Program-made: the position numbers and the translations under genes
Part shown: piece by piece, positions 1,873 through 17,651 of the stretch
Layout of the letters: the number at the start of each line of letters is the position of its first letter
How positions within the stretch are numbered: the first letter of the stretch is position 1
Source: Acinetobacter phage vB_AbaS_TCUP2199
Length of the DNA stretch: 64,000 nucleotides
Direction: 5' to 3' (one strand)
Sequence record: ON323491.1
The notes under the pieces: generated by a model
Seen by the model: the letters and a program-made list of their open reading frames with translations, nothing else
What the model was told of the DNA's origin: nothing
The model's database searches: none

Positions 1873-1925
1873 TCTAGCGTAGTTTTTAACTTAACCTTAA
1901 CCAAAACCTTTAGAGTAAATATCAC

Positions 1926-2783
1926 ATGTCTAAGCAAGAACAAAACCCAGTAGATTTTAAATTTGCAGAACAGTACCCAGAACTTGCACCTGAAAATACT
2001 TTAGTGTTGCATGAAAATTTCAATTTATTCGACCTGCAAAAGTATTTACCAAATGCACGTCGTTTAGCTGCAAATTTCCAAACTGGTGATTCTGAGTCAT
2101 ACTTTAAGTATGTGTTGGACCGTAAAGCGGAAAATGAAGATTCTCAAAAATCTCGTACATTCATCAATGCTTTTAATCCAGAATCTAGCTTAACAGCTAC
2201 AACTATCCTTAACTTTGGTACAAGTGAAAACGCAGGCCATGGGGATGATCGTGCTGTTTTGGATTTAAGTCGCGACCCAATGTTTGAAGAATTTTATGAA
2301 GCCTTCAACGATAAATGGTATAAAGCAAACAAACTTGCAGAAACTTTAGAAACATTCTTAGGTACTGCAGAAATGTTTGGTACTGTTGACGGTGAGGAGG
2401 GTCGCCTTCATATTTCAGCAGTTATTAGCAGCTTCCGTAACTTAAAAGTTGAAGCTAATCACACTAACCAGACTACTTCACAGTCACAATTCAAAGCTGA
2501 AACTTCTGATCTTGAAAGCTTTGAAGCGGAAGCTGTTGGTGGTGCTTTACCAGAGTACATTTTCTTTAGCACACCAATCTATGCTGGTTTAGAGTTCCAA
2601 GACATTCGTTTTAAAGTGATCATGGAAAAACGTGAAGATGAAAATAAAAAGCCTTTCGCGGTATTCCGCTTAAAGCCAATTGCATTGAAGTATGCATACC
2701 ATCAAGCGGCTGCTAACTTCCGTCACTTAGTACGTGAAAACTTGGAAGGTGAAGACACTTATATTGGTTCTGCAAAAGTATAA
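1926..2783 (+). CDS. hypothetical protein (285 aa)
   Basis: Long ORF; followed by a hairpin terminator. Confidence 0.5.
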   Translation: MSKQEQNPVDFKFAEQYPELAPENTLVLHENFNLFDLQKYLPNARRLAANFQTGDSESYFKYVLDRKAENEDSQKSRTFINAFNPESSLTATTILNFGTSENAGHGDDRAVLDLSRDPMFEEFYEAFNDKWYKANKLAETLETFLGTAEMFGTVDGEEGRLHISAVISSFRNLKVEANHTNQTTSQSQFKAETSDLESFEAEAVGGALPEYIFFSTPIYAGLEFQDIRFKVIMEKREDENKKPFAVFRLKPIALKYAYHQAAANFRHLVRENLEGEDTYIGSAKV

Positions 2784-2860: not shown

Positions 2861-3274
2861 GTGGATAAGAGCAAAGAAACTTTAGCTTATGTATGGTACA
2901 GATCAATAAATAACGTTGTGATGCATATCCACAATGCTGTTTATAAAGGTGACCGTAAAAGCTGTAAATATAAAGTTGGCAAACAAATTATTGCCACAGT
3001 TGAAAATGACAAAGTGAGCAAGATTGCAGACTTTAGCAAGGGCCGTGTCATTATCCCAGACCATGACAAAGGCATTGTCAAGTACATGCCAATGCTCAAT
3101 GAAACATCTTTGGCCGAAGATGTTCAAGACAGAATGCAAGCAGCAATACGAGCCAACACACCACTCCAAGTATATAAGGCTTATGAAGTCACAGGTCTTA
3201 AATACTGGATAACTAATCGTATTGAATTTATCTACAAATATGCCAACCGTGTAGCAAACCCACAAAGCAATTAA
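2861..3274 (+). CDS. hypothetical protein
   Basis: GTG start with GGAG 6 nt upstream; ORF-finder TTG start at 2849 is less likely. Confidence 0.45.
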   Translation: MDKSKETLAYVWYRSINNVVMHIHNAVYKGDRKSCKYKVGKQIIATVENDKVSKIADFSKGRVIIPDHDKGIVKYMPMLNETSLAEDVQDRMQAAIRANTPLQVYKAYEVTGLKYWITNRIEFIYKYANRVANPQSN

Positions 3275-3286
3275 GAGGACTCCACC

Positions 3287-3742
3287 ATGGAACTTAAAAA
3301 TCGTACAGTTGAAGAAGTAGCAGCAGAAATCGAAAAGCTGATTGCAATAATGGACCCGAATCAACCATATTCAGTTGATGCCATTAAAGCCGACGTTGAC
3401 CAAGCGGAGGTGGATGCGCTGCTTAAACTGCTACATATTCGCTCACAGCTTGTTGAGAAATTCAAAGCAGTGTTTAACGTGGTTGACTCTATCGAAGCCA
3501 GTGTCAAAGCTAAACGTTTCCCTGCAGGTACTTATGGTATTACCAACCCGCTGAAAGTATCAGCAGTAACCAGCAAGGTTTATGATATGAAAGGAATCTT
3601 GGAAATTCTCAAAGATAAGTTTGATGATATTGAACCATACGTGATTCCTGATCTTAAAAACAAAACAGTTGAAGAAATCGTTGGCACTCAACCAAAGCTG
3701 GTTACAACAGTAAAAGGCACAAACCGCCACAGCTTCAAATAA
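3287..3742 (+). CDS. hypothetical protein (151 aa)
   Basis: ORF with RBS GAGGA. Confidence 0.5.
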   Translation: MELKNRTVEEVAAEIEKLIAIMDPNQPYSVDAIKADVDQAEVDALLKLLHIRSQLVEKFKAVFNVVDSIEASVKAKRFPAGTYGITNPLKVSAVTSKVYDMKGILEILKDKFDDIEPYVIPDLKNKTVEEIVGTQPKLVTTVKGTNRHSFK

Positions 3743-3753
3743 GGATACACGTC

Positions 3754-3975
3754 ATGCCAAGACATTTAACAATGGATGACGTAAGCAAACTTGACGATGA
3801 ATGTGCATACATCATCGTCAATGCTGCACCGATTCCTGTAGTTGAGTTAGTGACCATGGACTACAACAAAGCACGTGGTTTATGTGTAAGTGAAGAAAAC
3901 AATGTTATGCTTGCGCTCACACCAGAAACCTTGGCTGCAGTCCGCAGCGGTGAATACTTGGAGATCAAAGTATGA
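3754..3975 (+). CDS. hypothetical protein (73 aa)
   Basis: Small ORF, ATGA overlap with next. Confidence 0.4.
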   Translation: MPRHLTMDDVSKLDDECAYIIVNAAPIPVVELVTMDYNKARGLCVSEENNVMLALTPETLAAVRSGEYLEIKV

Positions 3976-4256
3976 CAACCTTCACAATCACTTTTAACCC
4001 ATTCTACTTTGATATTATTCTTATATATATCATTTGGTTAGTTGCACCAATTGCTTTACGTTGGGATGTACATTTAAGTGACCCTAAGAAAGCTAAAGAA
4101 CCCCACTGGCAGTTTTTAACTATGGTGGTTGGTTTTGCTTTAATTGTTACCTTATTTGTTTTACGTATACTTGACGCGATATTCGCTCAACTAGCAATAT
4201 CACTTGATAAAGTATTAACCAAGTATGGAAAATATGTTTTTCCTACCAAAAAATAG
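3972..4256 (+). CDS. small membrane protein (94 aa, 2-3 TM)
   Basis: Hydrophobic segments ILIYIIWLVAPIAL and VVGFALIVTLFVL. Confidence 0.45.
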   Translation: MTTFTITFNPFYFDIILIYIIWLVAPIALRWDVHLSDPKKAKEPHWQFLTMVVGFALIVTLFVLRILDAIFAQLAISLDKVLTKYGKYVFPTKK

Positions 4257-4264
4257 GTGGTCAG

Positions 4265-4738
4265 GTGAGTATAGAAAAACTTGAAACACTATTTGCAATT
4301 GAGTTCGGGCAACTACTTGAAAACTATCTGTATTCTAACGCACGACGTGAAGAATTGACGGACGTAATCTGTAGCTGCCTGCAGTTGCGAAACAAACAGC
4401 AATTGGCCCAGATATATGCTGGGTATGATATACCTTCAACCGCTAACATATTTGAATTGATCAGAACATTGAATGACGACGAGTTCACCATGCGCTTTTT
4501 CAAGCTGCAGACTACGTTGCCAGAAGTGGCTGTATCAAGACCAGAGGAAGTGGTTGAGCAAGCACCTGTCGTTGAGGTAAGTACGGAGCGTAAACCGTAC
4601 TGGATGATCGACGATGAAGAAAAGCCTGCAGACTATCCAAAGCAAGACGAAAATGACTTGCGAAAAAATGACGACATGTTCGATGAACTTGGAGACATGG
4701 ATATGGATATGATGAAGGGGATTGATTTTAACCTTTAA
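4265..4738 (+). CDS. hypothetical protein with strongly acidic C-terminus (157 aa)
   Basis: GTG start after AGGTGG; C-terminus DDEEKPADYPKQDENDL...DMDMDMM. Confidence 0.45.
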   Translation: MSIEKLETLFAIEFGQLLENYLYSNARREELTDVICSCLQLRNKQQLAQIYAGYDIPSTANIFELIRTLNDDEFTMRFFKLQTTLPEVAVSRPEEVVEQAPVVEVSTERKPYWMIDDEEKPADYPKQDENDLRKNDDMFDELGDMDMDMMKGIDFNL

Positions 4739-15818: not shown

Positions 15819-15845
15819 AAAAAACCCCTTTCGGGGGTTTTTTAA
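15819..15845 (+). terminator. rho-independent terminator
   Basis: aaaaacccc-tttc-gggggtttttt. Confidence 0.7.
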
Positions 15846-17290
15846 TCGCTTTAGAAAGCAGTAAATTTTAAAGCCTAAATCAATTTATTTTGGATTAGTC
15901 TTTTTGATTTCAATATTTAGATACTATTGTTGCTTTCTAACCGATTAAACTGGCTACGAACTTAGCCAATGAAGTCGAAAGATGGATTGAACAACCCTTT
16001 AGTGTTGAGGTTCATTTAAATCTGGCATGGCTGGCTTATCCATTTGGTTCTGCAGATAACCAGTGGTTAAAGTAGAGGGGTTCTAACAGCCAAATTGTTT
16101 TTAGATATTGATAGAAGCTATAGTAATTCTTGATATGGACTTAAACAATTAGGGTTCGATTCCCTACGCCAGATGCCATTTATGGGTTATCTATCAAATT
16201 GAAGTAAACGAAAGCGCGTAAGTAGTTTACGGAAAATTACTGGTGTAGATAGATGTGCTGTGTTACTTCTAGGGTCAAAGGCACATGGTGGTTCGATTCC
16301 CCGATAACCCAACCAATATTTATAGTTGATAATTTCAGTCAACTGTACATCAAAGGTCGCAACTTTGCAGGACAGAAGTTATCAACTATAAATGTTGGAA
16401 ACAATATTTAGTGAAGCATTCTTGACGAACCGCATGAGATGTAAGGGGTAATGGAGACTGTGATGGTCATAGAAGTTACCAGATAAGTTGAAGCGTATGT
16501 GGCCCTTTTCAAAGGTTGTGGGCCAAAGCTGAGCTGACGATCAAACAGATTTAGCATCAACCAAGGTGTTGCTAGTCACTTCACCGAGAATGCTTCCCTA
16601 AATGTTGGAATACTCAGGCAAAGGGTAAACCGCTGTAGACAGGCCGCAAGGGACAGATACTCTTGGTCAGGGCCGATAAGTTTTTGGGTTATGCAACTCA
16701 ATTCCAACATTTCCAAATTTGAGGACTGCCGATTTAGCGGTTGTGCAAGCTCAAAGGGGTTACGTAAGTGCCGCACGACCTACTAGCTAGGAAGGCATAA
16801 GCGTAATGGGTGTCACCTACCAGCAGGTCAACTAAGTACACGTTGATTAATCCTAGTGGTGAGATGCTAGGGAACCCCAGCTAGGGTTCCTAACAATATT
16901 TATGGAAACAAATTCATGACTGTGACCTCTTTAAAAAAAGATAAGCAGTTGATTGTCGGTTAGTTTGGGTATGTGAGGTAACCACTCAAGCGGACAATCT
17001 CCTTCCTCACAAGGGTTGAGTTTGGTTCCATAAGTGTTGTAAATGAGAGAAACAGCCCGTATCCCTGTATGGTTAAGACTGCTCTCAATAGTCTGTGGAT
17101 TGAAACCTAGCTGGTAACAGCATGAGACGGATGCCACGCCTTGTATGGCAACAAACCAGCGAGTGAGTGGAAAGCTCACAACCAACACTTACCATGTTGA
17201 CTGTCAGACTCAGGACATAAGCGAGGAACATAGCAGAGAAATTGCTCTTAGAAGTAGAAGCCTGCTTGACCGACAAGAATGTTGAGTCAG
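15846..17290 (+). ncRNA. ORF-free structured non-coding island (tRNA-like elements or other structured RNA)
   Basis: No ORF over 90 aa on either strand across 1.45 kb; two GGTTCGATTCC T-arm-like motifs (16150-16166, 16287-16303); 14-bp perfect inverted repeat 16319-16332 / 16379-16392; long-range pairings 16411-16421 with 16588-16596 and 16601-16612 with 16701-16712. Confidence 0.35.
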
Positions 17291-17326
17291 CACCCCGACC
17301 ATTAAATTGGTTGGGGTGTTATTTTA
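17291..17326 (+). terminator. rho-independent terminator
   Basis: caccccgacca-ttaaat-tggttggggtg followed by ttattttat. Confidence 0.6.
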
Positions 17327-17351: not shown

Positions 17352-17651
17352 ATGACCCCCGAAGATCAAAAAGTGCTGGACCAAATTGTAGATTTACCGA
17401 CAGTTTTAAATGTTGAAGGCTTTGGTATCACAGAAGCAGACGTTTACAATCAAGCCTGTCAGATTTATGCTAAGTTAGTTTCTGTACCACGTACCCTGCA
17501 ACATGAACAAATGCTAGACTTTACTTACAAAGAGCTTGGTTATGAAGGCGGTGCCACAGAAGCTTACCAAGTTGGAGCTGTACAAGCAGCCTTTAACATC
17601 AAACGTATGGTTGAAAAAGGAATGGCTAAACAGGAGAAAGAGAATGTTTAA
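17352..17651 (+). CDS. hypothetical protein (99 aa)
   Basis: ATG after AAAAGGAAA. Confidence 0.5.
   Translation: MTPEDQKVLDQIVDLPTVLNVEGFGITEADVYNQACQIYAKLVSVPRTLQHEQMLDFTYKELGYEGGATEAYQVGAVQAAFNIKRMVEKGMAKQEKENV

Follow-up and report, generated by a model that had tools for sequence, protein, structure and literature searches.

The stretch of DNA analysed here, referred to as the window, comprises 64,000 nucleotides of the genome of Acinetobacter phage vB_AbaS_TCUP2199 (ON323491.1). Within it, the plus-strand segment 15846-17290, here called the island, is flanked by the lysis genes on one side and the DNA-replication genes on the other: the upstream lysis-gene block ends in an intrinsic terminator, a second intrinsic terminator closes the island, and the next gene starts at 17352 and is followed by the DNA polymerase gene. 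The initial annotation, made on the letters of the window, had described this segment as a structured RNA island with tRNA-like T-arms that lacks open reading frames (ORFs) of over 90 amino acids (aa) on either strand and is bracketed by terminators. The last two statements hold. The longest ORF, on the minus strand at 16931-17188, is 85 aa long. The upstream terminator, AAAAAACCCCTTTCGGGGGTTTTTT, was read in the sequence; it was left unflagged by the terminator scan that found the downstream one, and its hairpin is also seen in sub-threshold Rfam alignments. As argued below, the island probably represents a set of selected, structured plus-strand RNAs in the slot of a tRNA island.

The island and its flanks are 92-96% identical to the corresponding regions of fJoAci01, EAb13, fJoAci04, and Mystique, which are lytic Acinetobacter baumannii siphoviruses of ~80 kb (the loci compared are coded from L001 upward, with EAb13 as L002, fJoAci04 as L003, Mystique as L004, and phage T4 as L133). 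In these four close relatives, an endolysin gene, a 49-aa ORF, the island, and a family-A DNA polymerase gene follow each other, with all genes on the plus strand. An ORF-free island is found at the same site in all relatives, with a muramidase/endolysin gene and a short ORF of 38-52 aa on one side and DNA polymerase A on the other; in distant relatives known from metagenome assemblies, whose DNA polymerases are 74-83% identical, it measures 0.55-1.1 kb. A search of IMG/VR with the DNA polymerase yielded no relatives, and two DNA patterns, derived from the modules TL1 and M5 described below, gave either chance matches in coding DNA or none in the same collection. Further close relatives were sought via P0003 and P0009; one contig ends before the island and the other resembles L008. 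The papers on Mystique and EAb13 mention "one tRNA" only and do not describe the island region (PMC12013898, PMC10508131).

The island encodes a chain of independently folding modules, each of which has a closing terminal helix, i.e., a leader, TL1, TL2, M3, the three-domain M4, M5a, and the M5 core, with the A/U-rich CAAUAUUUA between them (Table 1). A canonical tRNA-Asn(GTT) gene lies directly 5' of TL1 in the four close relatives and in most of the distant ones. In the window, ~84 nt including this gene are cleanly deleted at position 16019/16020 (as compared with L001 3319-3394), which leaves the 64 kb without any tRNA, and all non-tRNA modules are retained. Consistently, ARAGORN reports neither tRNAs nor a transfer-messenger RNA (tmRNA) over the whole window, and Rfam 15 gives no match there at its gathering thresholds. 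When E values up to 10 were allowed, the island region gave noise only, besides a 15-nt T-loop alignment to tmRNA of 11 bits, and the tRNA family RF00005 remained unmatched. These negatives agree with the initial annotation, which could assign the island to no known RNA family and had proposed searches for canonical tRNAs and known families, as well as folding against related phages, as checks. In the latter comparison, the helices covary.

The M5 core is the principal finding. In the window, it starts with a closing helix P1 (17031-39/17183-91), which is optional in the family to which the module belongs and is made by the flanking sequences. There follow AAUGAG, helix P2 with an AUCCC-loop hairpin and GGUUAAGAC inside, CAAUAGU, helix P3 (CUG/CAG) with a GUAA-capped hairpin inside, AAAC, CGAG, and helix P4 with a GGAAA loop. 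The family consensus reads AWUGAG; an 8-bp P2 around an A-U-C-C-C-loop hairpin and GGUYAAGA; CAAUAGU; a P3 of 3-4 bp; AAAC; P3'; CRAG; and P4 with the GGAAA loop. The region enclosed by P3 is variable and usually contains a GNRA-capped hairpin. All junction motifs of the consensus are present in the window copy, and R1, the covariance model of the M5 core, matches it over its full length (17042-17180) with 78 bits (E ~2e-14). With filters off, R1 found no second copy in the window, including at M4b, which shares the AAATGTTGG stem.

The fold is supported by covariation among phages of distant hosts. In an alignment of the spliced core of 11 members, 96.4% of the cells are paired, compensatory changes are found in 15 of the 22 pairs, and every pair of P2 covaries; none of 500 shuffled alignments reached these values, and only 22-37% of the cells were paired when the strands were slid against each other. 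P3 occurs as CUG/CAG, CAG/CUG, CCG/CGG, UCAG/CUGA, CCGG/CCGG, CUGG/CCAG, and CCAG/CUGG. When 24 distinct natural sequences were aligned to R1, 92.4% of the cells were paired (25-38% when slid), 14 of 20 pairs showed compensatory change, and 101 compensatory cells were counted vs. 31 in shuffles, although this alignment leans towards structure because it was fitted to the model. Many of the pairs are G-U or U-G, such as an invariant U-G in P4, so that only the plus strand folds, as expected of an RNA rather than of a DNA-level structure. Membership of this family escaped the initial annotation because it is not visible in a single sequence.

Some further features of the M5 core were noticed by eye. 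The inner hairpin, CC-UGAAU...UAUGG, resembles the 11-nt tetraloop receptor, and the loop of P4 resembles a GAAA-type loop; a loop-receptor contact within the core is an idea suggested by these resemblances. In L068 (2531-2688), P2 does not enclose the segment with the AUCCC loop and GGAUAAUG, which is found in the variable region; this looks like a natural rearrangement of the parts of the fold. A group I intron-like P3-P7 reading was considered, as GGUUAAGACU and CAAUAGUC resemble the elements R and S. It was rejected: the putative P7 pairing is not kept in L017, L090, L071, and L094, there is no P4-P6 and no P8, and the Rfam intron model is unmatched.

The family was found by scanning metagenome contigs for the 3' hairpin of M5, a module whose short conserved stretches recur in L007, L011, and L012; many of the loci obtained were alike well beyond the pattern itself. 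The first pattern used was too degenerate, and about three quarters of its 120 rows were unrelated hairpins; true members were separated from these by the flanking AAACC-N-GC-R and by R1. The family thus defined comprises ~40 viral or metagenomic contigs, including 12 from IMG/VR and ~25 from metagenomes. Unannotated members are present in the Sinorhizobium phages phiM12, phiM7, phiM19, and phiN3, where they end 3 nt ahead of tRNA-His. A strict signature of the M5 core gave no match in 185,579 prokaryote genomes (bacterial and archaeal, one representative per species), and no prophage copies were seen in that search. Rfam matched neither the window copy nor the copy in L032.

Most members are embedded in clusters of tRNA genes and share their strand; in nine loci or more, the RNA is followed at a distance of 3-19 nt by a tRNA. 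The window copy shares this location by position, as the island is the site of the tRNA-Asn of the relatives, with no tRNA left here. In L068, a TTGACA-17-TATAAT sigma-70 promoter precedes the M5-core RNA, and tRNAs follow it. The downstream genes of the family members are mutually unrelated, and no protein cluster is common to more than 5 of the 34 family loci. In some members (L014, L017, L090, L114), the RNA is immediately followed by an ORF that has a ribosome-binding site.

A few neighbourhoods deserve mention in their own right. In L079 (6132-7742, minus strand), an orthologue of Ro60, with TROVE and vWA domains, is encoded 122 nt downstream of the M5-core RNA, with tRNA-Met genes around; no other examined locus showed this arrangement. 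A link with Ro60 and Y RNAs was dropped, as neither the window nor any other locus searched (loci L135-L149 lay outside this search) encodes Ro60. A tmRNA called by ARAGORN, with tag AETNVLPFVKRTAPVAARLAA, lies ~630 nt downstream of the M5-core RNA on the short metagenome contig L022 (79-500, minus strand). A soil element with the pattern GCGGCC..GGGA-AGTGGGTGGAAAGCCCACA-CGGTCCCGCCAC, found in L024, L037, L040, L042, L060, L076, L078, L097, L106, and L131, has only the GUGGAAAGC hairpin in common with the family, and marine loci provided two further recurrent contexts among the pattern matches.

TL1 and TL2 account for the tRNA-like features of the island. The initial annotation had located two T-arm-like motifs, and both are present as described: GGTTCGATTCC occurs at 16153-16163 and at 16290-16300, and the first copy lies within a perfect TAGGG/CCCTA stem at 16150-16166. 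Its statement that no acceptor stem could be closed for either of them proved incorrect. In TL1, TCTGGCA (16021-27) pairs with CGCCAGA (16167-73) in six pairs and one A/C mismatch; in EAb13 and Mystique, all seven pairs form, and four of the seven pairs have undergone compensatory change. The stem of TL2 is formed by UGGGUUAUC and GAUAACCCA.

For TL1, a tRNA-like cloverleaf is supported by the alignment of its four sequence variants. Besides the acceptor stem, it contains a short D-stem with a D-loop (UGGCUUA; UUGGCUUA, with its GG pair, is invariant), an anticodon-like arm with a stem of 4-5 bp, and the T-arm TAGGG-TTCGATT-CCCTA. The anticodon-like loop includes an invariant CUGCAGA (16050-56), which provides U33 and a GCA triplet, i.e., a Cys anticodon, in a loop of 7 nt in Mystique and 8 nt in the window and in EAb13; canonical tRNAs have a 5-bp anticodon stem and a 7-nt loop with U33, the anticodon, and a purine at 37. 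TL1 differs from a tRNA in an insert of ~88 nt at the position of the variable arm, in its short D-stem, and in its variable discriminator base, and it is rejected by ARAGORN and by the tRNA model of Rfam. The insert forms two hairpins and contains invariant blocks across four phages: the short hairpin has an AAGUAG loop on a covarying stem, and the long one carries the invariant UUGAUAG-N-AGCUAUAGUAAU-N-CUUGAUA. Overall, 88% of the cells of TL1 are paired vs. 37-46% in slid controls, and 7 of its 30 pairs show compensatory changes, four of these in the acceptor stem. R2, the covariance model of TL1, scores 171 bits on the window copy and 42 bits on a divergent L012 copy. Genuine tRNAs, including those of T4, are matched as well, end to end at 17-23 bits. 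Taken with the negative results of the detectors, these weak matches indicate that TL1 is tRNA-shaped, yet is no tRNA by any detector.

The predicted closing helix of TL2 extends over 7-9 bp and is followed by A-CCA; like the stem and tail of TL1, this conforms to a canonical tRNA (7-bp acceptor stem, discriminator base, and CCA), as does the T-arm of TL1 (5-bp stem with a TTCRANY loop). The T-arm of TL2 is imperfect, with a T-loop and 2-3 stem pairs around GGTTCGATTCC, three internal hairpins are present, and there is no anticodon arm. With 158 and 133 nt, respectively, TL1 and TL2 exceed the length of canonical tRNAs (~70-95 nt, the variable region not exceeding ~21 nt). TL2 is 99% identical in fJoAci01 and 91% in EAb13 and is absent from fJoAci04 and Mystique, which gives two distinct sequences, and its fold has a z-score of -1.8. 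ARAGORN calls part of the EAb13 copy "tRNA-Pyl(cta)", which is regarded as an artefact of the tRNA-likeness of TL2.

Other expanded or reduced tRNA-like elements were encountered. In fJoAci04 (3395-3594), tRNA-Asn and TL1 are separated by an additional tRNA-like element of 200 nt. It has an acceptor stem GGUGGGG/CCCUGUC with G-U pairs, a T-arm GGTGG-TTCGAGT-CCATC followed by G-CCA, and it contains CCTGCAGAT, with the CUGCAGA loop sequence of TL1. In L010 (~4243-4300), a mini tRNA-like RNA of ~58 nt follows right after tRNA-Asn, with an acceptor stem GGGTCG/CGATCC, one hairpin, a T-arm AGTGG-TTCGAGT-CCACT, and A-CCA; ARAGORN does not call it. Elements of 157-159 nt in unrelated phage tRNA clusters (L032 3662-3818, L144 1638-1796, and L142) have the design and size of TL1, i.e., an acceptor stem, a T-arm, CCA, a loop CUUGAAA with UGA (Ser-like), and ~80 nt at the variable-arm position, without sequence similarity to TL1.

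Modules M3 and M4 also contain helices that are preserved by paired changes. The 14-bp perfect inverted repeat recognized in the initial annotation is exact and forms the base of M3, in which TA is replaced by CG on both strands in EAb13 and fJoAci04; with a z-score of -6.3, this hairpin is exceptionally stable. M4, of ~490 nt, has three domains for which RNAalifold predicted 129 pairs from five phages, 16 of them with double-sided change, and several of its hairpins are entirely exchanged for other sequences of the same shape. The long-range helix 16411-21/16588-96, proposed earlier, was confirmed at the base of M4a and is invariant in the five phages, and three internal helices of this domain show compensatory changes (alignment columns 40-68, 119-146, and 156-176). 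For the helix involving AAATGTTGGAAT, the proposed pairing to 16701-16712 stands and is supported by compensatory changes (columns 200-294 and 201-293); its 5' strand had been placed one base off and in fact occupies 16600-16611. In Mystique, the interior of this domain, M4b, is replaced and the closing helix kept. The terminal hairpin of M4c (columns 449-467) shows three compensatory pairs in Mystique, and L007, with a DNA polymerase of 83% identity, also has the core of M4c. A third proposed helix, 16738-45/16773-80, can form in the window and in EAb13, but fJoAci01, fJoAci04, and Mystique lack its 3' partner, and this pairing is unsupported. At the site of M5a, Mystique, L007, L011, and L012 have unrelated domains, each with its own long closing helix.

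Table 1. Features of the island and its borders in the window.
Feature	Position	Strand	Description and basis
Intrinsic terminator AAAAAACCCCTTTCGGGGGTTTTTT, end of upstream lysis-gene block	15819-15845	+	CCCC-TTTC-GGGGG stem, T6; read by eye; kept in all relatives
CAATATTTA copy 1, junction motif	15911-15919	+	Kept in relatives
Leader module	15920-16019	+	Hairpin UGGCUA-CGAACU-UAGCCA (15951-15968); directly before tRNA-Asn in relatives
TL1, expanded tRNA-like RNA, 158 nt	16021-16178	+	Alignment of four sequence variants, pair counts, model R2
TL2, second tRNA-like RNA, 133 nt	16183-16315	+	Minimum free energy fold closes 9-bp UGGGUUAUC/GAUAACCCA helix; free 3' ACCA tail
CAATATTTA copy 2	16314-16322	+	Overlaps final CA of the CCA of TL2
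M3, long hairpin	16319-16392	+	Perfect 14-bp base extending to 18 bp; inner CAAAG/CUUUG hairpin
CAATATTTA copy 3	16402-16410	+	Motif count
M4a, multi-hairpin domain	16411-16598	+	Closed by 16413-23/16586-96; RNAalifold, five phages
M4b, domain closed by AAAUGUUGGAAU/AUUCCAACAUUU	16600-16712	+	RNAalifold, fold
M4c, core GGUGUCACCUACCAGCAGG...AAUCCUAGUGGUGA, variable insert, terminal GGGAACCC hairpin	16713-16893	+	RNAalifold
CAATATTTA copy 4	16894-16902	+	Motif count
M5a, domain closed by UGGAAACAAAUUCA/UGAGUUUGGUUCCA	16903-17029	+	Fold
M5 core	17031-17191	+	Covariance model R1, covariation
3' tail, small hairpins	17192-17288	+	Fold; L007 and L010 differ here
Intrinsic terminator closing the island	17289-17326	+	13-pair stem at 17289-17320, then T-run; terminator scan

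Modules were delimited by cutting the islands of the relatives at CAAT[AG]TTTA, and among these phages they are present, absent, or reordered as whole units. In EAb13, M3 lies ahead of TL2; the island of Mystique lacks TL2 and M3; that of fJoAci04 lacks TL2 and has the extra tRNA-like element; and M5a is replaced by an unrelated domain in Mystique and L007. The short motif CAATATTTA, whose recurrence had been noted in the initial annotation, is found four times in the 64 kb (starts 15911, 16314, 16402, and 16894), each time within the island and on the plus strand. For four sites placed at random, a rough calculation gives a probability of ~2e-6 that all share one strand and lie within 1 kb. 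A junction CCA-ATATTTA is also present 3' of TL1 in EAb13, fJoAci04, and Mystique. A role of CAATATTTA as a promoter -10 element was considered and rejected, as consistent -35 boxes are absent and the motif is confined to the island. A second recurrent sequence, AAAUGUUGG or AAGUGUUG, provides the 5' strand of closing helices in the M3 tail (16391-16401), in M4b (16600-16611), and in P1 of the M5 core (17030-17039), and P1 of L007 and of L012 is made by it as well; it is a possible mark of joints at which modules recombined.

The leader module is 93-95% identical in four Acinetobacter phages and 69% identical in L010. Its fold has a z-score of -1.5, and in L011 its hairpin reads GGUUACGAACUUAACC, which represents a change of C-G to U-A. 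A non-coding block upstream of tRNA-Asn is kept in distant relatives (L008 5135-5300 and L009 4560-4735; window 15940-15968). It contains CG(A/U)UAAA(C/G) together with the hairpin GGYUA-CGAAC-UUARCC, which covaries and recurs in the window leader. The block may represent a further small RNA or serve as a signal for processing.

Together, these results partly support the original interpretation of the island as tRNA-like or large non-coding RNA. It is not random intergenic DNA: it is non-coding and specifies structured RNAs with helices kept by compensatory change in relatives. A cluster of non-canonical tRNA-like RNAs is indeed present, but it covers ~300 nt only, i.e., TL1 and TL2, and these are not permuted, since they have ordinary 5'/3' acceptor-type stems. 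The notion of one large structured RNA was not borne out, as the remaining ~1.1 kb form a mosaic of independent modules that have been swapped, lost, and gained among close relatives.

Among the alternatives, decay of a former tRNA cluster comes closest to the data, and we regard it as quite unlikely. TL1 and TL2 would then be tRNA pseudogenes bloated by insertions, and the rest of the island junk left after tRNA loss. The loss of a canonical tRNA-Asn that close relatives keep would fit such a course, as would the imperfect T-stem of TL2, the A/C mismatch and non-CCA tail of TL1, and the coming and going of modules among relatives. However, decaying sequences would not be expected to keep the TL1 acceptor, M3, and M4 helices through compensatory changes or to maintain invariant blocks in the insert of TL1 across four phages; the M5 core covaries heavily across unrelated phages of distant hosts; and the non-tRNA modules were retained even though the real tRNA was deleted.

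Two further alternatives appear very unlikely. The island might act at the DNA level, as an origin, a packaging site, or a recombination hotspot, with its inverted repeats serving as cruciforms or protein-binding sites. It does lie just upstream of the replication module, AAATGTTGG occurs three times, and the CAATATTTA junctions are points of module shuffling. However, the many conserved G-U pairs would read as C/A mismatches on the complementary strand, only plus-strand motifs and model matches occur, tRNA-like architecture and GNRA loops are features of RNA, and the cumulative GC skew has no turning point at the island. Equally improbable, in our view, is that the island regulates the genes from 17352 onward, including the DNA polymerase gene, as a long structured 5' leader or in the manner of a riboswitch. 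The position of the M5-core members in L014, L017, L090, and L114, directly upstream of ORFs with ribosome-binding sites, is what such a regulator would show, but in the window a strong terminator stands between the island and the gene that follows, the genes downstream of family members are mutually unrelated, and most members are flanked by tRNAs rather than ORFs.

That the island encodes several small proteins, as annotated in database records of relatives, is hardly credible: the hypothetical small coding sequences (CDS) recorded over the islands of EAb13 and Mystique (nine and seven, respectively) disagree in frame and strand between the two phages, those of EAb13 have PHANOTATE scores near zero, Prodigal calls none in fJoAci01 and fJoAci04, the 85-aa ORF is opposite in strand to every neighbouring gene, none of the seven small ORFs of the island has a match in PHROGs, and the variation consists of helix-preserving double changes and module-sized indels rather than being codon-wise. 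The records of EAb13 (3226-4666) and Mystique (3493-4394) contain 5-9 such CDS over the island, on both strands, and these look like annotation artefacts over structured RNA.

Several observations weigh against the view that the island is a set of selected, structured RNAs. For TL1, M3, and M4, covariation is based on 4-5 closely related phages, and the structure of TL2, which has an imperfect T-stem and is known in two distinct sequences, comes from a fold and not from covariation. The thermodynamic z-scores are mostly between -1.5 and -2.1 and are modest for TL1, TL2, and M4; it is covariation, rather than the modest stability of most modules, that carries the case. A scan revealed no convincing sigma-70 promoter upstream of the island, and the promoter, the processing sites, and the stability of the RNAs are all inferred from sequence. 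Aminoacylation of TL1 is doubtful, as its discriminator base varies (U, C, A, A) and its 3' tail is U-GCCA in the window vs. N-CCA in the relatives. The discriminator base matters for charging by cysteinyl-tRNA synthetase (CysRS), and its variation in TL1 therefore argues against charging by this enzyme in spite of the GCA triplet. The support for any of the functions proposed below is weak as well.

Stable RNAs other than tRNAs in phage tRNA islands are not new as a kind. Species 1 and 2 of T4 have been known for fifty years, and GOLLD and ROOL are more recent additions. The T4 RNAs, rnaC (species 1, 139 nt) and rnaD (species 2, 119 nt), are encoded in the tRNA gene cluster on the strand of the tRNAs, like the modules described here, and their function is still unknown. 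Like TL1 and TL2, rnaC is far longer than a tRNA and has a T-arm near its 3' end, in this case a perfect one (CCGGG-TTCGAAT-CCCGG). T4 differs in having two such RNAs beside eight tRNAs, whereas the island has six or more modules and no tRNA. Homology with rnaC and rnaD was considered and rejected, as R1 and R2 have no match there and R2 matches only the real tRNAs of T4. In the T4 locus (1909-2172, minus strand), rnaD opens with AAUGAG, the hexamer found at the start of the M5 core, and rnaC contains AUAUUGAG followed by a hairpin.

GOLLD and ROOL are RNAs of phages and prophages that are often located by tRNA islands, were defined by covariation, and have no known protein partner and no known function (PMC12286853). 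Their Rfam models do not match the island, their lengths of ~580 and 800 nt exceed the ~140-220 nt of the M5 core, and they are common in prophages, whereas the signature search of the prokaryote genomes detected no prophage copy of the M5 core. YrlA Y RNAs mimic the D- and T-arms of tRNAs, are substrates of tRNA enzymes, and have been found close to tRNAs in certain phages (PMC4201824). They are encoded near Ro60 (TROVE) genes, and they carry their tRNA-like domain internally, with ends that form a Ro60-binding stem with GNCGAAN0-1G; TL1 and TL2 have the opposite arrangement, with acceptor-type stems and NCCA tails at their ends. A tblastn search of the window with Ro60 protein found nothing and Rfam was unmatched, the GNCGAAN0-1G motif not having been formally searched. 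TL2 shares with tmRNA an acceptor stem and a T-arm around a large non-tRNA insert; tmRNA is longer (260-400 nt vs. 133-158 nt) and has a tag reading frame and a series of pseudoknots that are absent here.

If the island is indeed a set of structured RNAs, it would be a polycistronic operon of stable RNAs, transcribed as one precursor that ends at the closing terminator, and this precursor would be cut into stable RNAs by host enzymes of tRNA and rRNA maturation. An acceptor stem stacked on a T-arm is the minimal substrate of RNase P, and this enzyme is therefore proposed to cut the 5' ends of TL1 and TL2. RNase E prefers RN↓WUU; because the CAATATTTA junction fits this preference, RNase E would cut it at CA-AU↓AUU (CCA-AU↓AUUUA). 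RNase III may cut the closing stems of 14 bp or more. We give this processing scheme an even chance. The products would then act in trans on the conserved tRNA, translation, or RNA-decay machinery of the host and not on a phage protein. A universal host component is favoured here because tRNA genes are the sole constant neighbour of the M5 core, no protein partner is apparent, and the hosts are distant from each other. TL1 and TL2 could serve as mimics or decoys for tRNA-binding enzymes or for defence nucleases that target tRNAs, and the M5 core could be a compact RNA-only fold that binds a universal host factor. Such functions are speculative, and we would sooner expect them to prove wrong than right. 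Still more tentative is the proposal that the M5 core represents the first example, from a cultured and tractable pair of phage and host, of a new and widespread class of virulent-phage RNA that needs no protein of its own. It would be a ribozyme by which tRNA operons process themselves or would bind, as RNA alone, a universal host factor of tRNA or translation metabolism. TL1 would then be a natural tRNA scaffold that exploits the maturation and stability of tRNAs to display its functional insert, for example as a decoy against defence nucleases that target tRNAs.

To what was known, the island adds a compact, covarying RNA family that is absent from Rfam and, in the collections searched, restricted to viruses, i.e., phages of Acinetobacter, Sinorhizobium, and many environmental hosts, where it is almost always found among tRNA genes. 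It further adds tRNA-shaped RNAs with very large inserts at the variable arm. Neither the M5-core family nor the expanded TL1 seems to have been described before, as judged against Rfam 15; they were not compared with the 10,006 candidate phage RNAs reported elsewhere (PMC10690425). In current annotations, the island is left blank or is filled with spurious small ORFs. The hosts are clinical strains of A. baumannii, and EAb13, Mystique, fJoAci01, and fJoAci04 are under development for therapy, so that the RNAs of the island can be directly deleted and tested. Finally, the window provides a natural experiment, in which the sole real tRNA was lost and every non-tRNA module was kept, and this argues that these modules are selected for their own sake.

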